Positions 5,462 to 48,493 of a stretch of 64,000 bases of DNA are shown here, in pieces (within the stretch, counting starts at the first letter, position 1; each line of letters opens with the position of its first letter). The notes beneath the pieces are model-generated. The model ran no database searches. It was given only the letters and a program-made list of their open reading frames with translations, and was not told where the DNA came from. Made by a program: the position numbers and the translations under genes. The stretch covers positions 6,358 to 70,357 of the forward strand of contig CAZACP010000001.1 in the NCBI GenBank assembly GCA_964483665.1, read 5' to 3'. Origin of the DNA: an uncultured Candidatus Saccharibacteria bacterium (GTDB taxonomy: Bacteria > Patescibacteriota > Doudnabacteria > UBA920).

Positions 5462-6472
5462 TCATTTTCCTAAAAATTTTTCAACCGGCTTTGCGGTTTT
5501 TGAAAAGTCGGGCGGAAGCCAAATTATTTGTTTACTCTTTCTCCACCACGTAAGTTGGCGTTTTGAATAATGTTTTATGGCGAAAAGCAATTGCGTGAAC
5601 ATTTCATCGTAAGTTAGCTTTTTTTGCAGATACAAAGAAATAAATCGGTATTCAAGGCCAAAACTATTTAAACGTTTCCAAGATAAACCTCTCCCACCTC
5701 TCGCATTCGCTCGAGGCACCCTCTCCATGCTTTGGAGAGGGTGATTGTGTAGGTCTGCGACTTCTTTTATTATTCCTTGCTTAAAGCGCTCTTTAAGGCG
5801 TTTTTCTATTTTTTTATATAAATCTTTTTGATTGGTTTTTATGCCGAGCCATAAAGTAGGGTAGAGGGTAGAGGGCTGGGGCTTGAGTGGGGAAATGGGT
5901 TTTTTTGTTGCCTCGATGATTTCTAACGCGCGGATTAAGCGTCGTTTGTTGAATCTATCAGTGGTACTTGCCCGAGCTGGATCAAGTTTTGCAAGCTGTT
6001 TGTAAAGTTCTTCAGCAGATTTTTTTTCTAAAGCTGCGCGGAGTTTTTTGTTGGGTTTAACATCCGGGAGTTTTTGGTTATAAACGACCGCGTCTATCCA
6101 ATGAGCGGTTCCGCCACATAGAATAGGCAGTTTGCCTCTTTTTAAAACAGCAGAAATTGCTTTTTGCGCGTCCTTCTTAAAAAGCGCGGCAGAGAATTGT
6201 TTTTTTGGGTTTACGTAGTCTATGCAGTGGTGAAAAACGCCTTTGTATCTGTAAAACGCACGGCCGTGTGTTTTTACGGAAATCCATTTGCCCGGGATCT
6301 TGCCCGTGCCTAAATTAAGTCCTTTATAAATTTGCCGGCTGTCTGCGGAAATTATTTCACCGTTAAAACGCTTTGCTAGTTTTACTGCCAGTTCACTTTT
6401 GCCCGAAGAGGTAGGGCCAACAAGTACTAAAATTTTAGATTTTAGATTTAAGATTTTAGATTTTGAAAACAT
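5462..6472 (-). CDS. miaA: tRNA dimethylallyltransferase
   Basis: P-loop GPTSSGKSELAVKLA...IISADSRQIYKGL; the N-terminal SKSKILNLKSKIL is encoded by the tttagattttag word repeat. Confidence 0.9.
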   Translation of the reverse strand: MFSKSKILNLKSKILVLVGPTSSGKSELAVKLAKRFNGEIISADSRQIYKGLNLGTGKIPGKWISVKTHGRAFYRYKGVFHHCIDYVNPKKQFSAALFKKDAQKAISAVLKRGKLPILCGGTAHWIDAVVYNQKLPDVKPNKKLRAALEKKSAEELYKQLAKLDPARASTTDRFNKRRLIRALEIIEATKKPISPLKPQPSTLYPTLWLGIKTNQKDLYKKIEKRLKERFKQGIIKEVADLHNHPLQSMERVPRANARGGRGLSWKRLNSFGLEYRFISLYLQKKLTYDEMFTQLLFAIKHYSKRQLTWWRKSKQIIWLPPDFSKTAKPVEKFLGK

Positions 6473-6659
6473 TACTAAATCAGTTGCTAAAATTCGACAT
6501 GTTACTTATAGAGTTTTTGTTCAATAAAAGTTTAATGTTTTTTTGTTGTCAATTTTTTACCCGCGTGCTTAGTTTGTAATATTAAAGAACGGCTGTGAAC
6601 GCGCATGCGTGGGCGCTTTTTTTGTTCTCGTTTTTTGGCTTTGGTTAGATACTCGTCTA

Positions 6660-6691
6660 AAATTCGTTTTTTCATGGTTTTGTGGTATAAT
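6660..6691 (+). promoter_or_regulatory. Candidate extended -10 promoter (tgg-tataat)
   Basis: tgtggtataat at 6681-6691, about 100 nt upstream of the 6799 start. Confidence 0.35.
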
Positions 6692-6798
6692 TTAGCTACA
6701 GAATAATAAATTTATACACTACCGATACCTACAGAAACTTTAAAGCATTGACATTGCATAATATTGTAAATTTATCTCTAAAATTAAAAATTACACTT

Positions 6799-7314
6799 AT
6801 GAAAAAATTCACATACATTATTCTTGCCTTAATAATTATAGCAGGGGGCTACTATTTTTACGATACGTACAGGAAAGCAGATTTTGTAAAAGTTGAAGAT
6901 TTGCAGCAATCTCCCACAACGCCCAACGCACCAACACCGACTCCCACAAAAGAGTCTGTAGCAACTCCGACACCTAAAACTAACCAAGGCGGCGGGACTT
7001 TTTCCTCGGGTGAGGAGAATGTAGACGGAGGTTCAAGCGTCCAGGTTTTAGAGGTGGTTTTTGACGGCAATGCTTTTAGCCCTAGTTCGTTAAATATAAA
7101 TGTTAATGACTGGGTATTTTTTAAAAACGCTTCAGATTCAGATTTATGGGTAGCCTCCGACACTCACCCCAGCCATACCGGCTACGCGGGGTTTGATTCT
7201 AAGAAAAAAATAGCCAAGGGCGGGACTTACAAATTTGAATTTACCAAAGCAGGAACTTTTGGTTTTCATAATAATTTAAATCACGAGCAAAAAGGTAGTA
7301 TAAACGTTAAATAG
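6799..7314 (+). CDS. Membrane-anchored secreted protein with a Pro/Thr-rich linker and a cupredoxin-like beta-sandwich domain
   Basis: MKKFTYIILALIIIAGG signal/anchor; PTTPNAPTPTPT linker; C-terminal FEFTKAGTFGFHNNLNH resembles a plastocyanin-like fold but lacks the Cys ligand. Confidence 0.5.
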   Translation: MKKFTYIILALIIIAGGYYFYDTYRKADFVKVEDLQQSPTTPNAPTPTPTKESVATPTPKTNQGGGTFSSGEENVDGGSSVQVLEVVFDGNAFSPSSLNINVNDWVFFKNASDSDLWVASDTHPSHTGYAGFDSKKKIAKGGTYKFEFTKAGTFGFHNNLNHEQKGSINVK

Positions 7315-9793: not shown

Positions 9794-10234
9794 ATGGCGA
9801 AATTTCCATCTTTCAAAGATGTTGGCAGGGCAATGGGTTTTGAGTTTAGTGAAGGAGAAAATGTTTTAAACAATCTGAATCAGATTTTAAAAAATTTGGA
9901 TTATTATAAAACACAAGTAGGCGAAGATTTTTTGCGCGACAAATGTGAATATTACCCCAAGGTTGCACCTGAGCCTAAAAATGGAGTCCTTTTATTTCTA
10001 CCGGAAGAGAAACGGGGTAAAACTACATCTGAAGATATGTTTCGTTTATCTATTTATGAATTTATTGATCGAGTGGAAGATTTGGCTGAAAATTCAAGAT
10101 TTAAAAAAAATGATTTAATTGGAATTTTGTCTGAGCTTAAAGATTCAATCAACCAAATGACTAATGCCGAGGCTGTTGAAAAATTAAAACATGTAAGACA
10201 GGATATATTTAATTTAGTTGAAGATATTAAATAA
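9794..10234 (+). CDS. Hypothetical protein
   Basis: ORF tightly packed between frr and rseP; no family recognised. Confidence 0.45.
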   Translation: MAKFPSFKDVGRAMGFEFSEGENVLNNLNQILKNLDYYKTQVGEDFLRDKCEYYPKVAPEPKNGVLLFLPEEKRGKTTSEDMFRLSIYEFIDRVEDLAENSRFKKNDLIGILSELKDSINQMTNAEAVEKLKHVRQDIFNLVEDIK

Positions 10235-10239
10235 TTTTT

Positions 10240-11379
10240 ATGGTAGCAACAATACTTATTTTTATATTAATTTTAGGTTTGCTGGTGTTAGTTCACGAGT
10301 TTGGACATTTTATAGTCGCTAAAAAGAGCGGAATGGTTGTGCATGAGTTCGGTTTTGGTTTCCCGCCCAGGCTAATTGGCCTAAAAAAAATTCAGGGTAA
10401 AAGGAAGGTTGTTTGGGGGCATCAAAAAAGCATTTCAGATTCAGAATTAAACCAGGGCGATGAAAATACTCTATATTCAATAAACAGCATACCGCTTGGC
10501 GGTTTTGTTCGTATAATGGGGGAGAACAATGAACACGAAAACAATCCCAAGAGTTTTATAAACAAACCCTTTTGGCCGAGATTTTTTACGCTTGTGGCAG
10601 GCGTGATAATGAACTTTATATTGGCCGTTGTGATTTTTGGGGTTGGTTTTGGCATTGGTTTGCCTGCCGCTTTTGAAAAGTCTAGCGAAATTCCGAAGTA
10701 CGCAGTAATGGAAAATGCAAAGACAGCGATTATAGAAGTTATAAAAGACCAGCCCGCGGACAAAGCGGGAATTAAGTCGGGAGATTTTATAGTAAGCATA
10801 GACAATAACAAATTTACCAAGGCGGAAGAATACAGGAATTACATACGTTCCAATTCCGGCAAGGAGTTTGCTTTTGAAATAGAACGTGGCGGGCAAATTT
10901 TTAATTTTAAATTAGTTTCCGTGTCTAATCCGGCTGAAGGCCAGGGTCCGACCGGAATTGCATTAACAATGCTAGGGAAGCTAAGATACCCTTGGTATTT
11001 AGCACCATACGAAGGTTTGAAAATGGCCATTGTGCAAACCGGCGCTATTTTTTCCGGACTCTATAAGTTGCTTACTTCCGGCCTCGGTCTTTCTTCTTTG
11101 GGCGGGCCGGTAAAAATAGCTCAGCTCACCGGACAAGTGGCTGATATGGGAATTATTTATTTAATGCAGTTTACCGCGTTTTTGTCGTTAAATTTAGCGG
11201 TTTTAAATATTATGCCGTTTCCGGCTTTAGACGGCGGCCGGGTGGTATTTTTAATAATAGAAAAAATTCGGGGCAAAAGGAATAATCAAAAGTTTGAGCA
11301 AATGGCCAATGCCGCGGGTTTTGCGCTACTGCTTTTGCTTATGTTGGTTGTTACAATTAAGGACGTGAAGGGTTTTTAG
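10240..11379 (+). CDS. rseP: RIP zinc metalloprotease (site-2 protease) with PDZ domain
   Basis: HEFGHF zinc motif in TM1; PDZ (GIKSGDFIVSIDN); C-terminal LDGG motif. Confidence 0.9.
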   Translation: MVATILIFILILGLLVLVHEFGHFIVAKKSGMVVHEFGFGFPPRLIGLKKIQGKRKVVWGHQKSISDSELNQGDENTLYSINSIPLGGFVRIMGENNEHENNPKSFINKPFWPRFFTLVAGVIMNFILAVVIFGVGFGIGLPAAFEKSSEIPKYAVMENAKTAIIEVIKDQPADKAGIKSGDFIVSIDNNKFTKAEEYRNYIRSNSGKEFAFEIERGGQIFNFKLVSVSNPAEGQGPTGIALTMLGKLRYPWYLAPYEGLKMAIVQTGAIFSGLYKLLTSGLGLSSLGGPVKIAQLTGQVADMGIIYLMQFTAFLSLNLAVLNIMPFPALDGGRVVFLIIEKIRGKRNNQKFEQMANAAGFALLLLLMLVVTIKDVKGF

Positions 11380-30676: not shown

Positions 30677-31354
30677 ATGATTAAATTCCAAAAAGTAACA
30701 AAAAATTATAAAAATTCCAAAGCTTTGGACGGCGTGGATTTAGACATACATCACGGAGAGTTTATTTCTTTGGTGGGCAGGAGCGGAGCTGGGAAATCTA
30801 CTTTGTTAAAACTAATAATTGGCGAGGAAGAAATAGACGGCGGGAGGATTTTAATTGACGACATTGACATCTCCCAAGTTCGAAAGTCTGACCTGCCTTT
30901 CTTAAGAAGAAAGATTGGCGTGGTGTTTCAGGACATGAGGCTTTTGCCCAGGCGGACGGCTTTTGAAAATATTGCTTTTGCAATGGAAGTCTGTGGGCAC
31001 CGGTATGAAAATATTGTTAAGGAAGTTCCCAAAATTTTAGAGCTGGTCGGCCTTCACCATAAGCGCAATAATTTTCCGGACGAAATGTCGGGCGGCGAAA
31101 AGCAGCGCGTGGCTATTGCGCGCGCGCTTTCACACCGGCCTGTGCTGCTTTTGGCCGATGAGCCGACGGGAAATTTAGACGAAGTTAACGCGGCAGAGGT
31201 TTTAGATTTGCTTTTAAAAATCAACAACCTTGGGACAACTGTAATTTTAGCGACCCACGCGGCGGATTTGGTAAACAAAATTAAAAAGCGCGTAATAACC
31301 ATAGAAAACGGAAAAATTACCATTGAGCAGGAGAAGGGAAAATATAAGTTATAA
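30677..31354 (+). CDS. ftsE: Cell-division ABC ATPase FtsE
   Basis: Walker A GRSGAGKST, signature LSGGEKQR, Walker B LLLADEPT. Confidence 0.95.
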   Translation: MIKFQKVTKNYKNSKALDGVDLDIHHGEFISLVGRSGAGKSTLLKLIIGEEEIDGGRILIDDIDISQVRKSDLPFLRRKIGVVFQDMRLLPRRTAFENIAFAMEVCGHRYENIVKEVPKILELVGLHHKRNNFPDEMSGGEKQRVAIARALSHRPVLLLADEPTGNLDEVNAAEVLDLLLKINNLGTTVILATHAADLVNKIKKRVITIENGKITIEQEKGKYKL

Positions 31355-31456: not shown

Positions 31457-32374
31457 ATGTTCGATTCCATTTCATTTTTTAGAATAGTTAAGACAGGTTT
31501 CGTCAATTTTTGGCGCAATTTGTCTTTGTCCGCGGCTGCAACCATGGTTATGAGCATAACTTTGGTAATTTTTGCTTCGCTGTTTTTAATTTTTGGCGTT
31601 ACTCAGTATAGTTTAAAAACTATTAAGAATACCGTAGACATAAGTGTGTATTTTAAGTCAGGTCTTGGTGAGGACAAAATAAACAGCATAAAAAGCGAAC
31701 TGGAAACTAATACTAAAATTCAAACAGTCCGCTATACTTCGGCCGCGGAAGCATTTAAGCAATTTAAAGAAAAGCACAATAATGATCCTTTAATTCAGCA
31801 ATCTTTAAACGAGCTGACAGAAAACCCGCTGCCTGCGACTTTAAATGTTAAGGCCTATAATTTAGAAGACTATCCGGAAATAGCAAACCAGCTGTCAGAT
31901 ACAAAATTCAAAGATTTTATAGACAAAATAAATTATGAAGATAACCGGGTCGTAATTGAGCGGTTAAACAAAATTTTAAAATTCGTTATTACTTTTGGTT
32001 TAGGTTTGATTGCGGTTTTTTCACTTATAGCTGTTTTAGTCATTTTTAACACAATTACGCTTACTATTTATAACCGCAAAGAAGAAGTGGAAATTATGCG
32101 GCTGGTGGGGGCGACTAACTGGTATATTCGCGGCCCTTTTTTGGTTGAGAGTTTTTTGTACGGTATTTTTGCCAGCATAATAACCGCAAGCTTGCTTTCC
32201 CCGGTATTTACCAAGTTTTTACCCAAAATTGCTTTTTACGTAAACCCGCAAATTTCGGTGTTTAACCAAAACATATTTAATTTTTGGTTTTTAATGCTTA
32301 TTTTATTGGCTTTAGGCTTGATTTTGTCGGTTGTTTCCACTCTGCTTGCTATAAGGCGGTATTTAAAAATATAG
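31457..32374 (+). CDS. ftsX: Cell-division permease-like FtsX
   Basis: Four-TM FtsX topology with a large extracellular loop; adjacent to ftsE. Confidence 0.85.
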   Translation: MFDSISFFRIVKTGFVNFWRNLSLSAAATMVMSITLVIFASLFLIFGVTQYSLKTIKNTVDISVYFKSGLGEDKINSIKSELETNTKIQTVRYTSAAEAFKQFKEKHNNDPLIQQSLNELTENPLPATLNVKAYNLEDYPEIANQLSDTKFKDFIDKINYEDNRVVIERLNKILKFVITFGLGLIAVFSLIAVLVIFNTITLTIYNRKEEVEIMRLVGATNWYIRGPFLVESFLYGIFASIITASLLSPVFTKFLPKIAFYVNPQISVFNQNIFNFWFLMLILLALGLILSVVSTLLAIRRYLKI

Positions 32375-36962: not shown

Positions 36963-37793
36963 TTAGTCTTCAAATAAAGGCGGTTTGCCGGTTTTTTTGT
37001 TTTCAACTTTTTTAATTTCCAGGTCTTGTTTTTGTCTGCCGGGAATTTCTTTTTCATTGTTTTCCGGTTTTTTGTCTTTTATAAATTCACCTTTAACTCT
37101 GTCTTCTTCTTTGTTAGGGTTTTCTTTTTTCAGTTCTTCAGTTTTTATTTTTACTTCTGTTGGGCTGGCTGAAGAAGCGCCTGTAAAGTTAATTTCTATT
37201 TCCACACCGCCTTCATGTTTGCCTTGCAATTTGAGTAAAGTTTCGGAAACCGAAGAAGCGGCTTGAGTATGTCCTTTGGCTTCCAGTTGTGCTTTTACAT
37301 CTGTTAAAATTTCCACCGCGTTTTGTAAGTTATTTTTGGCTTCGTTTTCGTAATTCTGTCGATTTGAATAATTTTCTGTTGGTTTTTCTACAGTTTGTAT
37401 GCGAAGCCTGCTTAATTCTTTTAAGCGCTCTTCGGCAAAATGCGACCTAAGCTTTGCCTTTCGTTCAGTAGATGTGCTTAGGCTAACCTCAATTTTTTCT
37501 TTGACTTGTTTTACCGGGTAAAGCAAGTCCCCGGGCACAGAGGAATTTGAAGCAAAAGCTGTTCCACCTATAAAAAATATTCCAACCATACCGGCTAAGG
37601 CAAAGCGTATAAAATGCGTATGCTGGTTATACCAAAATACTCCCTCAGGTTTGGTACTTTCCTGTGGTTCTTTAATTTTTTCTAAAATAGCCTGCTTAAT
37701 TTGCTCTTTTCGTAAACTGGGTAAAGAACTTTTATCCGCTAATTTTTTTAGTTTGGCTATTTCAGTATTAAATTTTTTAGTGTCCCATAGCAT
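36963..37793 (-). CDS. Putative anti-sigma factor (single TM, extracytoplasmic coiled region)
   Basis: Overlaps the upstream ECF sigma stop by 17 nt; TM FALAGMVGIFFIGGTAFA. Confidence 0.5.
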   Translation of the reverse strand: MLWDTKKFNTEIAKLKKLADKSSLPSLRKEQIKQAILEKIKEPQESTKPEGVFWYNQHTHFIRFALAGMVGIFFIGGTAFASNSSVPGDLLYPVKQVKEKIEVSLSTSTERKAKLRSHFAEERLKELSRLRIQTVEKPTENYSNRQNYENEAKNNLQNAVEILTDVKAQLEAKGHTQAASSVSETLLKLQGKHEGGVEIEINFTGASSASPTEVKIKTEELKKENPNKEEDRVKGEFIKDKKPENNEKEIPGRQKQDLEIKKVENKKTGKPPLFED

Positions 37794-38808: not shown

Positions 38809-40167
38809 TTATATTTTTTTAAATATTACTATTTCCCTGGCAACTATTTGGTCTTTACGGTCGTAAATAGCTGTTCCTCTGGCTGTGAGCTTTAAAAATT
38901 TGTATTTTTTAGCCTCAGAGGAGGGGATTAAGCTTATAGAATTATATCCTAAAGCCGAGGCAAAGTCAAGACTAGGCAGCATTTCGTACTCGTGCCTGCC
39001 TTTTTTATAAGCCGGTATGCACATAACTATTTTTGCGCCGGAGGGTAAAAATTTGGTGAATTCTTGAAAGGTTTTAGAATAAAGTTCTGTTAAATCGGCG
39101 AAATTTTTCTTAATTTCGTGCTCTTTTGGATAGTTGCCGTATATTGGCCCTAAAGTGCATTCCGTCACTATGCTACTTATTTTTTCTTTGCCAATAAGCT
39201 CTGCAACTTTTGTGGCGTCGGAGGTATTTAAAATATATTTTCCCGGGGCGATTTTATAGCGGTTTCTAAACCATTCCAAATTTTGTTCACTGCCTCTTAC
39301 AGCCACCCTGTTAATGTCTGACCCGAACATTCTGTAGCCCAAAAGCAGACCTTCCTGAATAATAGTGCCGATTCCGCAGAAAGGGTCAAGTATGGTGCTG
39401 CCTGGCTTGCAGCCGCTTAAATTTAGCATGACTTGCGCGACTTTTGGCGGGATCATGCCTTGCTTGTCGTCGCGTACCGGGCGCTGGTAGTCTCTTCGCC
39501 CGTAGTCTTCAAAGTCCTGGACTGTCAAAGTTTTGCCCACATAAACTTTTTCTTTGCCGGCTATAAGGCAAACCTCGGCTCCTTTTTGTAAAAGCAAATT
39601 GCCGGTAACGGCCACAGAGGCCAAAGAAAGGGAATTTATTTCGGGTAATACCAGTCTCACGCTGGCTCCGGTTTCGGTTAGGGTTTTCTTTATCATCATG
39701 CCAATTTTCTTGGGTTCGATGAATATATTGTTAGTTCGCTGGCCGGCAGAATTGTTTTGATTTTGGTTATAGCCGCCATTTTGAAAAGCGGGACGTTTTG
39801 CCAATTCTTCGTCGAGCAAATAAATACTGACTCCAAACTGAATTTTGCCTTTGTAATCTTTTAGAAATTGTTTTTTTAGCACGCTAGGCTTGAAGTAGTG
39901 CTGTAGAGTAAAGTTAACCGAATCAAACTCTCTTTTTTTAAGTTCCTCGCAAATTTGAATTATTTTTATGCAGCCGCCCAAAAACTTTTGCAGCTTTTCC
40001 ACTTGCAAAGGTTTTTGGGTTTCTATAATTAAAACTTCAAATGAAGCGTCTACTATTGAAACGGGGTTGTCTAAAAGCCCCAAAGACGCATCTGCCCTTT
40101 CTAAAACAGCCAAAATTTCGGCCATTGAAAGAGTATAAACCCTCCCTAATATGAATCCGTAGCGCAT
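38809..40167 (-). CDS. THUMP-domain RNA methyltransferase (Trm11/RlmL-like N2-guanine MTase family)
   Basis: SAM motif I DPFCGIGTI; UPF0020-like; trimmed to MRYGFILG because the upstream 80 codons overlap a divergent gene. Confidence 0.65.
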   Translation of the reverse strand: MRYGFILGRVYTLSMAEILAVLERADASLGLLDNPVSIVDASFEVLIIETQKPLQVEKLQKFLGGCIKIIQICEELKKREFDSVNFTLQHYFKPSVLKKQFLKDYKGKIQFGVSIYLLDEELAKRPAFQNGGYNQNQNNSAGQRTNNIFIEPKKIGMMIKKTLTETGASVRLVLPEINSLSLASVAVTGNLLLQKGAEVCLIAGKEKVYVGKTLTVQDFEDYGRRDYQRPVRDDKQGMIPPKVAQVMLNLSGCKPGSTILDPFCGIGTIIQEGLLLGYRMFGSDINRVAVRGSEQNLEWFRNRYKIAPGKYILNTSDATKVAELIGKEKISSIVTECTLGPIYGNYPKEHEIKKNFADLTELYSKTFQEFTKFLPSGAKIVMCIPAYKKGRHEYEMLPSLDFASALGYNSISLIPSSEAKKYKFLKLTARGTAIYDRKDQIVAREIVIFKKI

Positions 40168-40278
40168 TGGATAGTTATCGGTTGATATAATTATAGTCCC
40201 GATGCTTTTTGGTCGGGGCTCCGACTTTACGTCGGAGTTGATAGTACAAACAGATAATGTTACGATTAAGCTAAAGAT

Positions 40279-40692
40279 ATGCTTACTTACCAAGAATTTA
40301 AGGACTGGTGCGAAACCCACAAGCAAAAATTTGTAATAGCCGCCTGTTTTTTGCTGGTGTTTTTGGCAGGAATAGGGGTGGGCAGATATGAAAAAAACAA
40401 CCGGCAAAGCAACATAAATTTAAATAATTATAGCACAAATAATTCAAAAGAGCAAAAAATTAACCAACAAGCAGGGGAGCAGGCGGTTTTGGGAACAGAG
40501 GCGGTAAAGGCTACGACGACTTTGCCGACGGTTATAAACACAGATGCCTGTAAAATAAAAGGCAACATAGGTACAGGCGGGAAAATTTACCATATGCCGG
40601 GCGGCGCTTCCTACAAAATTGTTAAGCCGGAAATGTGTTTTAATACTGAAGCCGAAGCTGTGGCTGCAGGGTTTAGGAAGGCTGGGAGGTAG
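40279..40692 (+). CDS. Membrane-anchored small secreted protein with a C-terminal Cys-pair domain (CKIKGNI...GKIYHMPGG...CFNTEAEAVAAGFRKA)
   Basis: TM VIAACFLLVFLAGIGV; the C-terminal motif is common in small extracellular proteins of Gram-positives. Confidence 0.5.
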   Translation: MLTYQEFKDWCETHKQKFVIAACFLLVFLAGIGVGRYEKNNRQSNINLNNYSTNNSKEQKINQQAGEQAVLGTEAVKATTTLPTVINTDACKIKGNIGTGGKIYHMPGGASYKIVKPEMCFNTEAEAVAAGFRKAGR

Positions 40693-42318: not shown

Positions 42319-42381
42319 GAAATACCTACTATGTCGCACAATGTATCTTATGCGACATTGAATATATAAATAAAGCTTTGT

Positions 42382-42410
42382 AAAACCGCCAATCTGTTAA
42401 AGGCGGTTTT
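42382..42410 (-). terminator. Terminator closing the minus-strand hydrolase operon
   Basis: aaaaccgcc...ggcggtttt. Confidence 0.7.
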
Positions 42411-42436
42411 ATTTGGTAATCAGTTAGTTATTTTTT

Positions 42437-42724
42437 TTATGGTTGTTTATTTTGATTTTGTAATAATATATCAATTTTATAATTTTGTTCTCTAATCTTA
42501 TCAATAAGTTGATTTTCTATGTCTGCCCTATCGTTTGACTCGGTAATGACGAACTGTATATAGGCAAAAGCTAAAGCAATAAAAACAGTAAAGAATGCAA
42601 CAATGACACCTGTCATCATTAGTTGCAAAAAATTTAGTTGACTATCAGGAACTTGAGTTCCAAAAGCACCAGAGGTAGAAGCTGTTGTTGTCGTGCTTTT
42701 TTTGCTTTTTTCATTCTCAGTCAT
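42437..42724 (-). CDS. Small single-TM protein (Thr/Ser-rich N-terminus), last gene of the hydrolase operon
   Basis: TM LMMTGVIVAFFTVFIALAFAYIQFV; 7-nt gap to the upstream gene. Confidence 0.45.
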   Translation of the reverse strand: MTENEKSKKSTTTTASTSGAFGTQVPDSQLNFLQLMMTGVIVAFFTVFIALAFAYIQFVITESNDRADIENQLIDKIREQNYKIDILLQNQNKQP

Positions 42725-42730
42725 TTTATT

Positions 42731-42973
42731 TTATTCAAAAATCTTAGCTGGAAAAGTTTTTAGTTCACCAGTAACTTTATTAGCAAATAGCTTTACAGGC
42801 AAACCAGAAGGCATCAGCTTAATGCCACTTGATGGTGTTCCATTAGGAACAGTTGGGGTTGCTTCTGTATACCAAAACCAACCAACAACTTCATCCCAGT
42901 CGCCATCAGTATTATTATTGTTTAATTCAAGTATCTTTTGCTGAATTTTTTCTTTGCTTAAACCGTAAGACAT
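42731..42973 (-). CDS. Small Trp-rich hypothetical protein
   Basis: 80-aa ORF in operon context. Confidence 0.35.
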   Translation of the reverse strand: MSYGLSKEKIQQKILELNNNNTDGDWDEVVGWFWYTEATPTVPNGTPSSGIKLMPSGLPVKLFANKVTGELKTFPAKIFE

Positions 42974-43132
42974 TTTTTACTATTATTTAATTAAATCTAC
43001 GTCAATTTTACCACAAAACCACAACCACGCAAAGAGCTAGAACTTGATATAAAAATTCTGGCTCTCCTACTAAAATTAAGCTGGGATTTATCAACCTATG
43101 TATCTTCAAAAATTTATTACCCTAACTAAACA

Positions 43133-43567
43133 TTAAGGTGTTTTGCTGCAAATAAAGCTTATACTGTTTTGCTGTCCTTTATTTAAATTCATGCTGGCGC
43201 TTGTTGAGCCGATTTCGATTGCTACATTGTTATTGGTTGGACTGACTGCATTTTTTATAAATCTTTCATTCGGACAAATTACACCCAATCGTTCTTTGGT
43301 GTTTGTAAAACCAACTAAAACATATTGGCTTATGTTATTTATGTCTAAGTCTACGGTCTTATCCCCCACTGTTGCTTTTGAGTAAATGTTTCCGTCAAAT
43401 TCGGTTAAGGAAATAAAGTAAAAATCTGAGGCATTAATTTCTGCCGGACTTAGCGAGGTTGAAGGCAGGGTATTTTTTGGTGCAGTTGTTAAAAAGTAAA
43501 ATATCCAGCCAAGTCCTATGACTATTAAACCAACCAGCGAGTATATAATTATTTTGTTTTGATTCAT
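43133..43567 (-). CDS. N-terminally anchored periplasmic-type protein with two Cys; candidate inhibitor/immunity partner of the adjacent hydrolases
   Basis: TM IIIYSLVGLIVIGLGWIFYFL; 7-nt gap after the hydrolase gene. Confidence 0.45.
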   Translation of the reverse strand: MNQNKIIIYSLVGLIVIGLGWIFYFLTTAPKNTLPSTSLSPAEINASDFYFISLTEFDGNIYSKATVGDKTVDLDINNISQYVLVGFTNTKERLGVICPNERFIKNAVSPTNNNVAIEIGSTSASMNLNKGQQNSISFICSKTP

Positions 43568-43573
43568 AAATTT

Positions 43574-44542
43574 TTATGTTCTATTATTGTTTAGCCAATT
43601 AGCTACTGCTTCAACGCCTGCAGCCCAATTCGGACAAAAGCTACGTCTTTGTCCGCTGTCTGTATTTCCATAATTTCCCGGATTGCAAGTATCTACCGCC
43701 ACACCATCAACCCCGTAATGACTGTCGACTTCCATAATTGCCATTAGCACCCTAATGTCGATATTTCTTGCCGCGTTAACAACCATATCACCAGTAAGTG
43801 GGCTTCTTATATTTCCGCCTTTAAAAATTTGAGCTGACCTGTCCATATATGACTTTACTTTTTCAGGGGTGCTTAAATCTTGTCTAAGTAAATTATTATA
43901 TCTGTCCTTAACTAGGTTTTCATGATTAGCATCGGTCGCATAACGGCGAATGTTGTAGCCGGCTAAAATAAATGGAGTACCGTTATTTCCGTTTGCTCCC
44001 GGCAAGCTTGAGCCTGGCACAAAACCAGGAATATAAGCAGGCTGCAGCGTCACACTCGGCGGCTGTATAGGCCTAAACTTAATCAGGTCTGGGTTTAAAG
44101 CTTTAAGTAGAATATAGCCGGCAAACAAAATAACTAAAGAAGTAACTGTGCTGGCTAATATGCTTTTAGCTTTGTCTACAGATTCCTGGTTGCCACCGGC
44201 TCCAATATACAAATATCCGGCAATCACTATAAAAAATACGCCGACTACAGCAGCTGTCACTATGGCAAACCTATACAGCCTGTTTATGCAGTTATATAAA
44301 TCACCGCTGGAAACGTTATTAGCGCCCGATGAATCCAAATGGCCTCCAAAAGCATTTGTAGCAAGATTAGTTTGGCTTTTCTCCGGATCCGAAGGAGCGC
44401 ATAAATATTGTTTTATTTGAGCTCCAACTCCGGCTGTAGTGTAATCTGCGCTGCCGGAAGTGGTGTTTTGGGCAAAGGCAAGGTTTAAAAAACCTATTGC
44501 CAAATAAAAACAAATCGAAATAAGTAAGAGTTTTTTAGGCAT
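43574..44542 (-). CDS. Fusion protein: TrbC/VirB2-like pilin-type N-terminal module (signal peptide, Cys pair, two TM helices) plus a lysozyme/lytic-transglycosylase-like C-terminal domain
   Basis: N-terminal 150 aa nearly identical to the paralog at 44574..45548; C-terminus LMAIMEVDSHYG...CNPGNYG resembles the SLT E-S...NP catalytic region. Confidence 0.6.
   Translation of the reverse strand: MPKKLLLISICFYLAIGFLNLAFAQNTTSGSADYTTAGVGAQIKQYLCAPSDPEKSQTNLATNAFGGHLDSSGANNVSSGDLYNCINRLYRFAIVTAAVVGVFFIVIAGYLYIGAGGNQESVDKAKSILASTVTSLVILFAGYILLKALNPDLIKFRPIQPPSVTLQPAYIPGFVPGSSLPGANGNNGTPFILAGYNIRRYATDANHENLVKDRYNNLLRQDLSTPEKVKSYMDRSAQIFKGGNIRSPLTGDMVVNAARNIDIRVLMAIMEVDSHYGVDGVAVDTCNPGNYGNTDSGQRRSFCPNWAAGVEAVANWLNNNRT
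44052..44310. repeat. Direct repeat, copy B (identical to 45070..45328); a second block 44385..44486 matches 45390..45491
   Basis: 259 bp identical by eye; encodes the shared TM-hairpin module. Confidence 0.85.
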
Positions 44543-44573
44543 TAAAATATTATAAAGATATTGGGATATTAAA

Positions 44574-45548
44574 TTATGGGCACTTGCCTTTTAAATCTAT
44601 GTGCAAATGAAAACTTTGGTCTCTGTCTCTGCCCGGGTTTATGCGATCCTCGGTAATACCAGCCTGTTTTGCTGCGTTATAAATAGCTTCACCAACCGGA
44701 CGGCCTTTGTGAGCTTTAATGTCATAAAAACCGCTTCCCAGCCTGTCGCTAAAGTCTACGGCGCAGCCAAGTTGGTGCTGAGAGCCTTTTGATTCTCTCC
44801 TTACAGTTGAACTAACCTGAGGCTTGCTTCCGCTTTGCGAAGCCACGGAACAAATTTGCAAAAGTTTTTGCCACATAGGCGCGGCCAAATTAGGCAGCTC
44901 GTTGCGCGGCCTGTCTTCGCTGGTTATAGTACAGCCCGCGGCTTCTAATTGCGCAATGCTTCCGCCGGCTGAACCGGTTATAGGGGTTGTAACCTGGGCT
45001 GAAGCTGGGATTTGGGCTGCCGGAGGTTCTCCGGTTTCTGCTTCCGGCGGCTCTGCCGTATCTAAAACTACACTCGGCGGCTGTATAGGCCTAAACTTAA
45101 TCAGGTCTGGGTTTAAAGCTTTAAGTAGAATATAGCCGGCAAACAAAATAACTAAAGAAGTAACTGTGCTGGCTAATATGCTTTTAGCTTTGTCTACAGA
45201 TTCCTGGTTGCCACCGGCTCCAATATACAAATATCCGGCAATCACTATAAAAAATACGCCGACTACAGCAGCTGTCACTATGGCAAACCTATACAGCCTG
45301 TTTATGCAGTTATATAAATCACCGCTGGCTTTGTTGTTATTAGCTGAATACTCGACCTGGCTGCCGGTAAAATTTGTTTGTTTTGGGTCGGGATCCGAAG
45401 GAGCACATAAATATTGTTTTATTTGAGCTCCAACTCCGGCTGTGGTGTAATCTGCGCTGCCGGAAGTAGTGTTTTGGGCAAAGGCAAGGTTAACCCAAGC
45501 CGTAAGGGTGTAAAAGAATATTGTTACAACAAGAATCTTTTTAAGCAT
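44574..45548 (-). CDS. Fusion protein: the same pilin-type N-terminal module plus a peptidase M15A (YcbK/MepK-like, LAS zinc peptidase) C-terminal domain
   Basis: SQHQLGCAVDFS ... DQSFHLHID matches the HxxGxAxD / HxH zinc-binding motifs of M15 peptidases. Confidence 0.65.
   Translation of the reverse strand: MLKKILVVTIFFYTLTAWVNLAFAQNTTSGSADYTTAGVGAQIKQYLCAPSDPDPKQTNFTGSQVEYSANNNKASGDLYNCINRLYRFAIVTAAVVGVFFIVIAGYLYIGAGGNQESVDKAKSILASTVTSLVILFAGYILLKALNPDLIKFRPIQPPSVVLDTAEPPEAETGEPPAAQIPASAQVTTPITGSAGGSIAQLEAAGCTITSEDRPRNELPNLAAPMWQKLLQICSVASQSGSKPQVSSTVRRESKGSQHQLGCAVDFSDRLGSGFYDIKAHKGRPVGEAIYNAAKQAGITEDRINPGRDRDQSFHLHIDLKGKCP
45070..45328. repeat. Direct repeat, copy A
   Basis: See 44052..44310. 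Confidence 0.85.
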
Positions 45549-45587: not shown

Positions 45588-46955
45588 TTACTCTAAAAAG
45601 TTTAAAGGATTATAGGTATAGCCGTAAGGCAAACGATATGAGCCATAAATATTTTGGTATGCGCCGTCTTTAACCCCAAAACCTTCCTGGTCATATACGC
45701 CAAAGTGCAAGTGGTATCCCCTCTCTGGGCCGTAAAGTTTTTTGGTAGTATTGCCGGTATTGCCCTCGTAACCTATAAGGTCGCCTTGGCTGACTTTTTG
45801 TCCTGGGCTGACTTTAATTGTGCGCAAATGGGCGTAAACCGTAATTATTCCGGCAGAGCCGTTTTTAGTTGAAATATTGTGCTTTATCGCCACCCAGTTA
45901 CCATAAGAAGCGTCCGATTTGTCGGTATAAGCCACTTCCCCGCCGGCTGCCGCGTATATTGGCGAACCTGCCGGCGCGGCTATGTCTATGCCGTTGTGGA
46001 AGTTGTAGCCTAAAGCGCGAAACCCGGTATTGCCGTATTTTTGGGTTAATATGCCGTCCAGCGGCCAGGCCAATACGCCTTTTTTAGCCGCAATAGTTTT
46101 GTTTCCAAGTTTTGCTCTTACCTGTTCGTCTAGCTTGGAAATTTCCTCTTCTAACTTGTCGGCCTCGTTTTTGCTGACGGCTAAAAGTTTTTGGAAGTTG
46201 CTTTCAATGCCTCTGGTTTGGTTTAAAAGTTTTTGTTTGTCGTTTCGCTGCTGGGTAAGCGAATTTTGAACCTGTTCAAGCTCTAATTTTAATTCGTTTA
46301 AGCTGGCTAATTGAGCTTGCAAGTCTTTTTGTTGAGCTTCTAAGCGAGCCTTAAGCTGCTTAATTTTTTGCATGATTTGATAGACTTTGTCGTTATAGCT
46401 TTGGGTGTACTGAACCTGGTCTAAGAAACTCGAAAAACTGTCCGCTCCGACTGTGGTTTTTAAAAGATACTCGTTGTCAAACTCGTTTAACTGCCTTATA
46501 AGCTCTGAAAGTATTTTTTTGTTGTCGGAAATTTCTTTAATTTTTTGCTCTATAAGCTTTTGCAGAATTTCTATTTGGGTTTGGGTGTCGTCTATTTGGG
46601 TTTGTTTGGCTTCTATTTGCAGTTCCGTTTGCGCGATTTCTTTTTCAAAAATGCTAATTTCGCTTTTTAAAGTGTTGGATTTGTTGCGGGCATCAGAAAT
46701 TTGCTGGGTAAAACTTTTGATTTGCGAGTTTATTAACTCCAGCTTTTTTTGAGTTTCGCTTTTTTTGGTGTTTAACTGGTCAACCTCTGCCTTGCTTTGT
46801 TCCTGAGCGTTTAGCTCTGTATTTTCCGGAGTTTGGGCATAGGAAAAACTTGCTGCCAACAAAAAAATAATTGCCAAAAAAATTGATTTTGTATTTTTAT
46901 TTTTTTGAGTCAAAATCATTGAAGATATTATACCAGATTTATAAATAAAAAGCAT
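45588..46955 (-). CDS. M23/LytM peptidoglycan endopeptidase with a long N-terminal coiled coil (EnvC-like architecture, active-site residues present)
   Basis: HNGIDIAAPAGSPIYAAAGG...YAHL...GYHLHFGVY; about 250 aa of Q/E/K-rich heptad sequence. Confidence 0.85.
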   Translation of the reverse strand: MLFIYKSGIISSMILTQKNKNTKSIFLAIIFLLAASFSYAQTPENTELNAQEQSKAEVDQLNTKKSETQKKLELINSQIKSFTQQISDARNKSNTLKSEISIFEKEIAQTELQIEAKQTQIDDTQTQIEILQKLIEQKIKEISDNKKILSELIRQLNEFDNEYLLKTTVGADSFSSFLDQVQYTQSYNDKVYQIMQKIKQLKARLEAQQKDLQAQLASLNELKLELEQVQNSLTQQRNDKQKLLNQTRGIESNFQKLLAVSKNEADKLEEEISKLDEQVRAKLGNKTIAAKKGVLAWPLDGILTQKYGNTGFRALGYNFHNGIDIAAPAGSPIYAAAGGEVAYTDKSDASYGNWVAIKHNISTKNGSAGIITVYAHLRTIKVSPGQKVSQGDLIGYEGNTGNTTKKLYGPERGYHLHFGVYDQEGFGVKDGAYQNIYGSYRLPYGYTYNPLNFLE

Positions 46956-46996: not shown

Positions 46997-48493
46997 TTAA
47001 AGTTTTTCTGCTGCAAACTTAAGCCTTTTTATAATTTCTGCCTTACCCAGGCCAATAAACATTGCGCTTAAAACTTCGAACGGGCTGGGGCTTTTTTCAG
47101 CCCCGGTTAAAGCAGCTCTTAGGGGCCACAAAACTGAGCCGTTATCGTAATTGTTTGTTGTTATAAATTCCTTAATTTTTATTTCCGCGTTTGCTTGTTT
47201 AAAATCTTCATCTGTAAAGGAACTTATTAATTCCACTAATTTTCCTAATACAGCCTTGGTTTTTTCTTTGTCAGACTTTTTCCAAACTAAGAGTCCGCCG
47301 TCGTAATCGGGCGCTGCAAAAAAATACCGAGTCCTTTCCCCTATTTCTGAAAGTTTTTTTAAGCGTTCTTTTTCTAAGTTTGCCACTGCTTCCAGATAAC
47401 CCGGAGGGTATTTTTCTGTTTCTACTCCGGCTGTTTGCCAGTAAGGTAATAAATTTTTTACCAAACTTTCGTTGTTTAAATTTTTTATATATTGCCCGTT
47501 AAGCCAGTCCAGTTTGGCGGTGTCAAAAACCGCGCCTGATTTGTTTACTTTGCTTAAATCAAACTGCTGAATTAAATCTTCCAGGCTAAAAATTTCCTGC
47601 TCGGTTTTTGGGTTCCAGCCCAAGAAAGCTACAAAATTTAAAAGCGCTTCTTTTAAATAGCCTTTTTGCAAAAAGTCTTCTACGCTTACATCGCCTTGGC
47701 GCTTGGAAAGTTTAGATTTGTCCGGGTTTAAAATTAAGGGCAAATGCGCAAAGGCCGTTGGCTTGTAGCCTAATGCCTGGTAAATTAGCAAATGTTTTGG
47801 AGTTGAGGGCAGCCATTCCTCGCCCCTTATAACGTGAGTAATTTGCATTTCGTGGTCGTCAACCACCACGGCTAAATGGTAAGTCGGAAACCCGTCGGAT
47901 TTTATAATTACCTGGTCGTCTAAAATTTTATGATCGTATTTTACGTCGCCGTAAATTAAGTCATTTACCACGGTTTCGCCTTCTAAGGGTATGGCAAAAC
48001 GAACCACTGGTTTTTTGCCCAAGGCGTTAAATTCGTCGGTCTGTTTTTTTATTTCTTCTTCGCTTAAATTTCTGCAGTGCCTGTCATACATCGGCGGTTT
48101 TTTTAGCGCGGTTTGTTCTTTGCGCAAATCTTCTAAGCGGGCTTCGCTGCAAAAACAATAGTAAGCTTTTTTTTCGGTAATTAATTTTTGCGCTGCCTCT
48201 TGGTATTTTTTTAAACGTTTAGATTGCAAATACGGCCCAAACTCTCCCCTCTCGCCCAGGCTGCCGTCTTCTTTTAAATAAAAACCTTCGTCAAATTCTA
48301 TTCCTACCTCTTTCATTACCTTCAGTAAATTTTCCACGGCGCCTTGTACTTGCCTGCTTTGGTCGGTGTCTTCAATTCTTAAAACGTGCGTTCCGTTGTT
48401 ATGCCTGGCAAAGAGGTAGGAAAAAAGCGCGGTTCTTAAAGAACCTATGTGTACAAAACCGGTTGGACTGGGAGCGAAACGAGTGCGAACCAT
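46997..48493 (-). CDS. gltX: Glutamyl-tRNA synthetase
   Basis: MVRTRFAPSPTGFVHIGSLRTALF... HIGH-type; KLSKR (KMSKS) motif. Confidence 0.95.
   Translation of the reverse strand: MVRTRFAPSPTGFVHIGSLRTALFSYLFARHNNGTHVLRIEDTDQSRQVQGAVENLLKVMKEVGIEFDEGFYLKEDGSLGERGEFGPYLQSKRLKKYQEAAQKLITEKKAYYCFCSEARLEDLRKEQTALKKPPMYDRHCRNLSEEEIKKQTDEFNALGKKPVVRFAIPLEGETVVNDLIYGDVKYDHKILDDQVIIKSDGFPTYHLAVVVDDHEMQITHVIRGEEWLPSTPKHLLIYQALGYKPTAFAHLPLILNPDKSKLSKRQGDVSVEDFLQKGYLKEALLNFVAFLGWNPKTEQEIFSLEDLIQQFDLSKVNKSGAVFDTAKLDWLNGQYIKNLNNESLVKNLLPYWQTAGVETEKYPPGYLEAVANLEKERLKKLSEIGERTRYFFAAPDYDGGLLVWKKSDKEKTKAVLGKLVELISSFTDEDFKQANAEIKIKEFITTNNYDNGSVLWPLRAALTGAEKSPSPFEVLSAMFIGLGKAEIIKRLKFAAEKL

Follow-up and report, generated by a model that had tools for sequence, protein, structure and literature searches.

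Evidence for gene conversion between the pilin-like modules of tandem, predicted peptidoglycan hydrolase genes in a Patescibacteria genome

The stretch of DNA analyzed here, referred to as the window, comprises 64,000 nucleotides (nt) of contig CAZACP010000001.1, from an uncultured, Doudnabacteria-type member of the Patescibacteria, and carries two adjacent genes, A and B, whose beginnings are alike and whose ends are unrelated. Our main finding is that the common beginning, a predicted exported module resembling VirB2/TrbC-type pilins, is perfectly identical in the two genes over 259 nt, and that similar identity is found within other genomes, whereas the module differs widely from one genome to the next. 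This pattern strongly supports homogenization of the modules by repeated non-reciprocal homologous recombination (gene conversion) between tandem copies that lie about 1 kb apart. The first-pass annotation of the region had proposed ongoing gene conversion or cassette shuffling, and the comparison within and between genomes comes down firmly on its side.

Both genes are present on the minus strand where they had been predicted. The features on which the comparison depends are the following.

43574..44542, minus strand: gene A, an open reading frame (ORF) of 322 amino acids (aa), with signal peptide, pilin-like module, linker and lysozyme-like/GH73-like domain
44574..45548, minus strand: gene B, an ORF of 324 aa, with signal peptide, pilin-like module, Pro-rich linker and LAS-fold zinc peptidase
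44052..44310, minus strand: identical block, gene A copy (0 mismatches in 259 nt against 45070-45328)
45070..45328, minus strand: identical block, gene B copy, from base-by-base comparison
44385..44485, minus strand: second common block, gene A copy, from the mature N-terminus through YLCAPSDP
45391..45491, minus strand: second common block, gene B copy (3 mismatches in 101 nt, 97% identity, offset 1006)
44311..44384, minus strand: unconverted patch of gene A, within the variable loop between the invariant Cys48 and Cys85
45329-45390, minus strand: unconverted counterpart in gene B, 12 nt shorter than that of gene A
44471..44542, minus strand: signal peptide of A, MPKKLLLISICFYLAIGFLNLAFA followed by Q, with its n, h and c regions and AxA site read from the sequence
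45477-45548, minus strand: signal peptide of B, read from the sequence

The first block had been reported as 100% identical at an offset of 1018, which is exactly what was found. Its ends are sharp on both sides, with no leftward extension and the first mismatch at offset 259, and a perfect match of this length cannot arise by chance. The block codes for SGDLYNCINRLYRF, for both hydrophobic helices and the loop GNQESVDKAK, and for NPDLIKFRPIQPPSV. The second, near-identical block is also real, but it had been placed at the same offset of 1018 and one base off: its offset is 1006, and a comparison started from 45390 is out of register, with 68 mismatches. The offset changes because the divergent patch that separates the two blocks contains a 12-nt indel. 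A repeat search of the window returned two direct repeats, one of 300 nt (44052-44351 / 45070-45369, spacing 1018) and one of 123 nt (44363-44485 / 45369-45491, spacing 1006), and both tblastn and blastn indicate that the window contains only two copies of the module. The signal-peptide codons of A and B differ at 28 of 57 nt, and the 3' halves of the genes are unalignable past the junction; at the protein level, A and B are 75% identical across their first 187 aa and do not align beyond.

Two candidates were rejected. The antisense ORFs 44148..44420 and 45166..45426 do have an identical 54-aa start, as had been noticed, but they exist only through the duplicated DNA, and so are neither retained as genes nor counted as independent evidence of the identity. 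A weak tblastn match at 37569-37631 corresponds to transmembrane-segment similarity only, inside a DUF5667 anti-sigma-like ORF.

When the genes of seven genomes were split at the junction, which is marked by the motif QPPSV, the module DNA proved to be 88 to 100% identical within a genome (72% in the genome numbered L004), against 59 to 79%, about 65%, between genomes. Across genomes, the enzyme tails retain 41 to 87% protein identity for the A type and 44 to 84% for the B type, the two types being mutually unrelated; orthologues of A are 83, 55 and 47% identical, and orthologues of B at the same position 85, 66 and 62%. Long perfect runs are found in five other assemblies (479, 422, 410, 466 and 409 bp), and in four further genomes that have other tail types or combinations (372 to 431 bp). 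Synonymous sites tell the same story in a 69-codon core of the module: among 12 two-copy genomes, nine have no synonymous difference between their copies, one has a single difference, and L004 and L014 have 19 to 22, while the median between genomes is 24 synonymous plus 24 non-synonymous codon differences. Concerted evolution limited to one domain is unusually clean in this family, with 0 synonymous differences within genomes against about one third of the codons between them.

Conversion tracts end at the QPPSV domain junction, where homology ends, and their 5' starts vary. The tract of L001 starts 6 nt upstream of the ATG, and the Cys loop and signal peptide sometimes escape conversion. Module identity could be neutral, close tandem homology being enough, or it could be selected, if the two enzymes have to join the same oligomer or meet the same partner. 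As separate observations, the modules of L004 and L014 are diverged despite a gene order and spacing (1380-1404 bp) matching those of L005, in which the run is 466 bp, and the starts of the two copies lie 989 to 1505 bp apart, depending on the genome.

The contig L003, from another metagenome, is 98.1 to 99.8% identical to the window and allows conversion to be followed between close strains. Three synonymous sites of the core differ between the two, and at these sites both paralogues share the same base within each strain. The B copy of L003 carries A's version of the Cys loop, which is why its identical run reaches 410 bp, whereas the window's B keeps a loop type found in both copies of L001; a database cluster 99% identical to B also has the window-type loop. 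This pattern indicates that conversion is recent and apparently ongoing.

As read from their sequences, proteins A and B have at their start a typical Sec signal peptide, whose last residues, before a Q, are AFA. The next 55 aa or so contain two invariant cysteines and, enclosed by them, a loop that family alignments show to be hypervariable in both length and sequence. Next come two long hydrophobic helices joined by the conserved loop GNQESVDKAK, recognized both by hydropathy (windows at residues 1-7, 88-100 and 127-136) and in AlphaFold2 (AF2) models, in which the helices span residues 77-110 and 115-144 of B and 79-114 and 119-149 of A. After the hairpin, a conserved NPDL..F..QPPSV leads to a Pro-rich linker of 25 to 40 aa, modeled with low confidence as disordered, and then to the C-terminal domain, where the AF2 confidence score (pLDDT) is 83-95 in B and 75-91 in A. 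The invariant residues of the module in family alignments are C48/C81(85), G113, E116, K122, N146 and P147. Given a cleaved signal peptide and two membrane spans, this topology would place the catalytic domain outside the cytoplasmic membrane.

The common part had been likened to TrbC/VirB2 pilins, and the family searches agree. PF18895, the Pfam family T4SS_pilin, named after the type IV secretion system (T4SS), scores 26.6 bits against A and 26.8 against B, which is borderline for a gathering cutoff of 26.6, and it is matched by 48 of 50 aligned relatives (15 of 17 A-type and 33 of 33 B-type; best E 8.8e-10); weak matches to TrbC (PF04956) were obtained for 11 relatives. Both proteins have the signal peptide and the hairpin of two hydrophobic helices that characterize PF18895 pilins. 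They are not, however, the stand-alone subunits accompanied by virB4 and virB6 that T4SS pilins are, but fusions of 322-324 aa, and no solved VirB2/TraA pilin structure stood out among the generic helical hairpins returned by a structure search. Some relatives carry tandem pilin hairpins, with four to eight module matches per polypeptide (P0169, 820 aa; P0217, 552 aa; P0188, P0213 and P0239).

The C-termini had been described as unrelated to each other and of peptidoglycan-hydrolase type, and this description is upheld in outline, with A lysozyme-like/GH73-like and B a LAS-fold zinc peptidase. The domains and their putative active sites are located as follows.

44577..44963, minus strand: LAS-fold zinc peptidase domain of B, from putative metal ligands and structure matches
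44775-44777 (H258), 44754-44756 (D265) and 44601-44603 (H316, with H314 preceding), minus strand: putative metal ligands of B
43577..43972, minus strand: lysozyme-like/GH73-like domain of A, from PF01832 relatives, Foldseek and the family profile
43724-43726, minus strand: putative catalytic Asp273 of A, aligned opposite the catalytic Glu of MltC

In B, the residues H258, D265 and H316 (HQLGCAVD ... FHLHID) are invariant in 33 sequences and compose an H-x6-D...H-x-H motif. The best structural matches of the domain are Shh-N, MepA/M74, LdcB/M15B and ChiX/M15C, all consistent with the LAS fold, so that B resembles the known LAS peptidases (MepA/M74, VanY-LdcB/M15B, ChiX/M15C and the Hedgehog N-domain) in both fold and triad. 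Four further cysteines are invariant in the same 33 sequences and would fit an extracytoplasmic location. The B-family profile had no match among PDB sequences, and direct searches of PDB sequences with proteins A and B gave nothing meaningful. As no Pfam or PDB sequence family comes above threshold, B represents a separate, uncurated LAS subfamily. The name 'M15A', which the first-pass annotation had used, goes too far, as the support extends to the LAS superfamily level only: the structural neighbors belong to M74, M15B, M15C and Hedgehog, and M15_4 is matched only at E 0.072.

For A, a word-indexed homology search with the C-terminal domain alone returned two proteins only. The closest stand-alone relatives of the domain, at 41% identity, carry PF01832 (GH73 'Glucosaminidase'), which is also matched by 12 of 17 A-type family members (best E 5e-8). 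With the full-length model as query, the top Foldseek matches are to the GH73 catalytic domain of pneumococcal LytB (7pj3 and 7pj4, probability 0.96 and 0.84, E 0.13), and in the lytic transglycosylase MltC it is the catalytic helix ('AIMQTESSF') to which the A-family profile aligns, at E 0.003. The canonical catalytic glutamate of the GH73/GH23 (A)xxES motif is not present in A, which has Asp273 instead; across the A-type family this position is D in 16 sequences out of 17 and E in the remaining one, and Ser274, Gly277 and an NPGN motif are invariant. Judged from these profile and fold matches, A carries a lysozyme-like domain that stands between GH73 and SLT and whose conserved acidic residue is, unusually, Asp: it resembles GH73 (LytB, FlgJ, PF01832) in fold and motif position, and differs in having Asp where GH73 and GH23 have their catalytic Glu.

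A catalogue of the C-termini of further module copies, which had been suggested as a check, reveals at least 15 unrelated tail types among 144 homologues (17 tail clusters; single-linkage clustering merged types through linkers and multi-domain proteins, and the final version used coverage limits). All annotatable tails are of cell-wall-degrading kinds: at least three LAS-like types, GH73-like (PF01832), SLT (PF01464), SLT_3 (PF18896), SLT_3 with a GDSL esterase, C39-like, CHAP, Amidase_2, M15_4 and VanY-like. That T4SS_pilin and SLT_3 have consecutive accessions in Pfam suggests that a fusion of this kind had been seen by the curators. An exhaustive, profile-free search with the module gave 6874 representative clusters at E<=1e-3, 66 of them at E<=1e-30, and nearly all of the best 150 relatives are 250-680 aa long, indicating that fusion is the rule in this module subfamily. 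Across Doudnabacteria-type genomes, the slot that A and B occupy is filled according to lineage, with LAS-B and GH73-like, with LAS-3 and GH73-like, or with GH73-like, a small gene and LAS-3, and in others with an SLT fusion alone, a C39-like fusion alone or a short-tailed version. Since the cassette differs by lineage at a single core slot, the module also serves as a homology arm for cassette exchange.

The immediate neighbors of A and B in the window are three genes.

46997..48493, minus strand: gltX (glutamyl-tRNA synthetase), upstream border of the conserved slot, from gene tables and tblastn
45588..46955, minus strand: coiled-coil M23 (LytM) peptidase of 455 aa (PF01551, E 1e-26, and coiled-coil matches)
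43133..43567, minus strand: small, N-terminally membrane-anchored protein of 144 aa, starting 6 nt past gene A

The order gltX, M23, B, A and 144-aa gene, all encoded on one strand and separated by 41, 39, 31 and 6 nt, is kept in related contigs. Located 39 nt upstream of gene B, the M23 gene has an EnvC/DipM-like architecture and NCBIfam matches of the DipM/MepM/NlpD/EnvC type; as its M23 domain retains the HxxxD and HxH residues in its sequence, the protein is probably an enzyme and not only an activator. The 144-aa protein has no family match in Pfam or NCBIfam, and NCBIfam has no model for A or B either. By tblastn, the small gene was detected after the A-type gene in all seven loci concerned (L001, L003, L004, L005, L006, L022 and L045). 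It evolves fast, with 26-32% identity among distant copies where the enzyme tail keeps 43-59%, and its product could be a regulator, an inhibitor or an immunity-like partner. A promoter and terminator scan gave no excess of sites in real over shuffled sequence (19 versus 20.4 and 13 versus 10.8), so that the operon structure is deduced from the short gaps (39, 31 and 6 nt) only.

Gene order was surveyed in one genome per GTDB species, giving 50 loci, and in additional loci fetched by protein identity, for a total of 58 sources. The succession gltX, M23 and module gene(s) is present in 53 of these 58 loci, usually followed by a nifS-like gene on the opposite strand, and a contig end truncates the locus in four of the five exceptions. 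The module subfamily therefore occupies one fixed core-genome slot, in one or two copies. The window has the content of an ordinary chromosome, including GatA/GatB, a PBP transpeptidase, an RF2-type release factor, FtsX, L9, CTP synthase, an ECF sigma factor, gltX and queA. No VirB4, VirB6 or PrgI family member was found in nine related gene tables (±6-10 kb) or among the scanned ORFs of the window. A viral contig scan found no module relative, which leaves a phage lysin or holin origin unsupported. Named homologues belong to Candidatus Doudnabacteria or Patescibacteria; many TPA_asm metagenome-assembled genomes (MAGs) with the locus are titled 'uncultured Candidatus Saccharibacteria bacterium', yet they are syntenic with Candidatus Doudnabacteria MAGs, and this title looks like a generic pipeline name that is not to be taken at face value.

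We propose that A and B are peptidoglycan hydrolases that are exported by the Sec pathway, stay tethered to the membrane and have one N-terminal module in common. Going outward, each would consist of a cleavable signal peptide, the Cys-bracketed loop segment, a VirB2/TrbC-type hairpin, the QPPSV exit motif, the linker and the catalytic domain. Tethered by their linkers, the catalytic domains would reach about 10 nm from the cell's own membrane and, presumably co-transcribed with the EnvC/DipM-like M23 peptidase, the hydrolases may remodel or split the cell's own wall, be it for growth, for division or for opening it to surface structures. The pilin-type hairpin would be a specific anchor or oligomerization device, and not a T4SS pilus subunit. 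We consider the architecture and the gene conversion as described to be highly probable, and the peptidoglycan-hydrolase chemistry of both domains, predicted from their sequences and models, to be likely. The explanation as a whole, with module-anchored hydrolases, gene conversion and action on the own wall, is in our judgment fairly probable, while the specific role in own-wall remodeling together with the M23 peptidase is put forward tentatively, at slightly less than even chances. This role is favored because the synteny is invariant, the locus belongs to the core genome, the enzymes are predicted to be tethered, and no T4SS genes were found among the neighbors.

Several observations weigh against this proposal. 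Regarding chemistry, the gene A protein itself has no match to PF01832 at E<=0.1, and the replacement of the canonical Glu by Asp could mean altered or lost activity; for B, the match to Pfam Peptidase_M15_4 is sub-threshold (14 bits for a cutoff of 25). Foldseek E-values for the two catalytic domains are 0.13-0.15 and not significant, in part because full-length models served as queries. Regarding function, the hairpin module is conserved far beyond the needs of a passive anchor, a hint of a specific part in assembly, for instance in pilus-like polymerization, and frequent exchange of catalytic types is more typical of weapons than of housekeeping autolysins. The gene cluster of Southlakia epibionticum described below also allows the fusion in A and B to be read as tying these enzymes to the T4SS/pilin system and not to division. 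Finally, the '100%' identity might truly be about 98-99%, as graph assemblers merge near-identical repeats (bubble popping).

To date, PF18895 has served to find VirB2-like pilins in a T4SS survey of 1948 Patescibacteria assemblies (Quiñonero-Coronel et al. 2025, PMC12102498). This survey describes arrays of 2-11 pilin genes, of 25% identity on average and 54% at most, in genomes most of which are without VirB1, and makes no mention of pilin-hydrolase fusions. In Southlakia epibionticum, the T4SS cluster is essential (PMC10633639); according to the structure-based annotation in Table S2 of the same study, it includes SEML1_0006, which combines a Cys protease domain with two lysozyme-like ones (PF01832 and phage-tail lysozyme), SEML1_0007, which has a Hedgehog/DD-peptidase (LAS) domain at its C-terminus, and VirB4 with six PF18895 pilins (SEML1_0014-0019). 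In the literature searched, we found no description of pilin-hydrolase fusions or of concerted evolution of peptidoglycan hydrolase paralogues.

These reports give substance to the alternative that fares best, namely that A and B are wall breachers linked to a T4SS or pilus. The module would then be a working VirB2-type pilin, drawn out of the membrane and co-polymerizing with or priming the Patescibacteria T4SS pilus, and the hydrolases would either provide the missing VirB1-like function by opening the own wall, or be borne by the filament to cut the wall of the host. Indeed, the pilins of the essential array in the Saccharibacteria T4SS belong to PF18895, the essential Southlakia cluster has the same two enzyme types beside VirB4 and six such pilins, the module is strongly conserved with its inter-helix loop included, and relatives weakly match a pilin-like conjugal transfer family of Mycoplasma integrative and conjugative elements (ICEs). 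In addition, the genome table of the survey has a 'Yes' entry for one Doudnabacteria genome, which presumably denotes the presence of VirB4. We nevertheless hold this alternative to be doubtful. Neither the nine annotated related loci nor the scanned window ORFs contain a T4SS component, and the genes keep to a housekeeping slot in 53 of 58 loci, whereas pilins lie near virB4 in 1135 of the 1948 survey assemblies (PMC12102498); close relatives are all long fusions and none a free pilin; and no solved VirB2/TraA pilin gave an outstanding structural match. A and B do resemble the PF18895 pilins of Southlakia and of the survey arrays in their signal peptide, conserved Cys, two-helix hydrophobic hairpin and tandem paralogues, but here the module is fused via a linker to an enzyme domain of about 130 aa, in a housekeeping slot far from T4SS genes, and the paralogous modules are 100% identical, compared to the 25% average and 54% maximum of the published arrays (PMC12102498).

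A related and less probable idea, which we consider rather unlikely, is that the module is a polymerizing VirB2-type pilin, with which Doudnabacteria would form or decorate a pilus-like, hydrolase-bearing filament, or that the enzymes are released at the conserved NPDL/QPPSV junction in the way TrbC-type pilins are trimmed. If this were true, the locus would encode a wall-drilling appendage aimed at the host cell, the cassette would help set the host range, and gene conversion would keep the modules identical for co-assembly in a single filament.

The diversity of tails invites a comparison with polymorphic toxins, such as Rhs, CdiA and MafB, the T6SS effectors Tae/Tge and the peptidoglycan-hydrolase effectors of the Xanthomonas X-T4SS. 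By such a scheme, the module would be a trafficking device that delivers interchangeable peptidoglycan-degrading toxins to the host or to competitors, and the small gene would encode immunity or an inhibitor. A likeness to polymorphic effectors had been noted from the start, and it is borne out as far as architecture goes: one conserved N-terminal module is joined, at a sharp junction where recombination takes place, to at least 15 unrelated wall-degrading domains, cassettes are replaced at the same slot between lineages, and a small, fast-evolving, membrane-anchored protein follows the GH73-like gene. The genomics do not follow suit. Each genome has a single core-genome locus next to a housekeeping M23 gene and between conserved housekeeping flanks, the gene tables show no orphan cassette arrays, toxin/immunity arrays or mobile-element signatures, and no secretion-system genes are adjacent. 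Moreover, no candidate immunity gene follows the LAS gene (the gap to A is 31 nt), the SLT gene or the C39-like gene, and the retained hairpin is predicted to keep the enzyme tethered to its producer. A delivered toxin is thus, in our view, distinctly improbable.

Least credible of all is an artefact or a trivial origin of the repeat, be it a collapsed or chimeric assembly, a duplication of the whole gene in the very recent past, or a nucleotide-level constraint, imposed for example by an antisense gene or RNA. In its favor, metagenome assemblers are able to fuse repeats that are nearly identical, the longer tract of L003 could in principle be an assembly path error (a double path switch inside the repeat) that leaves the contrast within and between genomes unaffected, and both copies have antisense ORFs, but a one-off assembly error, which had been named as a possible refutation, is excluded because the in-frame two-gene layout with genome-specific identical modules recurs in no fewer than 10 independent assemblies, which differ in sample and pipeline, and because assemblies can keep differences (core identity 99.5% in L006, 86.5% in L004 and 88.4% in L014); a recent whole-gene duplication is excluded because the tails are old orthologues while the modules group by genome; and a fixed nucleotide-level constraint is excluded because synonymous sites are free to vary from one genome to the next (24 of 69 codons as the median) and the antisense frames show no conservation.

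Returning to membrane-tethered hydrolases acting on the own wall, the locus joins known kinds (membrane-anchored wall hydrolases, VirB2-like pilins and gene-conversion paralogues) rather than founding a new category. Among the first of these, CwlT of ICEBs1 is a membrane-anchored VirB1-like peptidoglycan hydrolase. PrgK (pCF10) and TraG (pIP501) are others, from Gram-positive T4SSs (named in PMC12102498). They have in common with A and B an N-terminal membrane anchor and extracytoplasmic glycosidase and peptidase activities, predicted in the case of A and B, and their combination of M23/LytM, glycosidase and second peptidase mirrors the M23–LAS–GH73-like operon described here. In PrgK, TraG and CwlT, the activities reside in one protein with a single-pass anchor, encoded inside a T4SS operon, whereas here they are predicted for separate genes, with a pilin-type hairpin as anchor and no T4SS context. 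The division hydrolases of the FtsEX–EnvC/PcsB/CwlO/RipC type offer a second parallel, through the coiled-coil EnvC/DipM-like M23 gene upstream, the FtsX gene in the window and the predicted extracytoplasmic hydrolases; we know of no member of that type with a pilin-like hairpin anchor. The FtsX gene lies at 31457..32374 on the plus strand, 12 kb away, with the same layout in related contigs (L061), and by synteny with L061 the ORF just before it (30677..31354, plus strand) is probably FtsE.

With regard to gene conversion, well-known paralogues are tufA/tufB, the rRNA operons, and Neisseria pilE/pilS and opa. The modules of A and B resemble them in their identity within genomes, their divergence between genomes, their variable tract ends and the continuation of the process between close strains. 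They differ in that conversion is confined to one domain, the other domains being non-homologous, and in that it homogenizes and does not diversify.

In this locus, the VirB2-like pilin module of Patescibacteria is physically joined to enzymes of two types, a GH73-like glycosidase and a LAS peptidase. Because the same three components occur together in the essential, functionally unexplained T4SS cluster of cultivable Saccharibacteria, the fusion is a Rosetta-stone clue to how that system acts on cell walls. The combination of domain-limited concerted evolution with cassette exchange at a fixed junction makes the hypothesis that modules are kept identical for co-assembly testable. For annotation, the locus is a warning that a PF18895 match alone does not denote a T4SS pilus gene, as this subfamily lives in a housekeeping slot. 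The family also provides a catalogue of compact, divergent, predicted peptidoglycan hydrolases of uncultured bacteria, including a lysozyme-like group with Asp for Glu.

Some minor observations concern the vicinity of the locus. The strain contig L003 is without about 760 bp that are present at 42368-43126 in the window, between the small gene and the nifS-like gene, a strain-level indel adjoining the hydrolase locus. The extra DNA of the window holds two minus-strand ORFs, 42437..42724 (95 aa, one hydrophobic segment, weak DUF4199) and 42731..42973 (80 aa, no match). In L002 (9033-10013 / 10001-10936) and L006 (5007-6014 / 6001-6975), the last 13-14 nt of the upstream module gene run into the beginning of the GH73-like gene, in place of the gap of 31 nt. 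Elsewhere in the window, a 532-aa methyltransferase ORF with a TTG start (38809-40407, minus strand) overlaps a 137-aa ORF (40279..40692, plus strand); the former is probably over-extended, since its orthologues have 436-455 aa. Orthologues of the latter are tagged PF27542 (ArfC) in precomputed tables, and a local Pfam search finds no such match.

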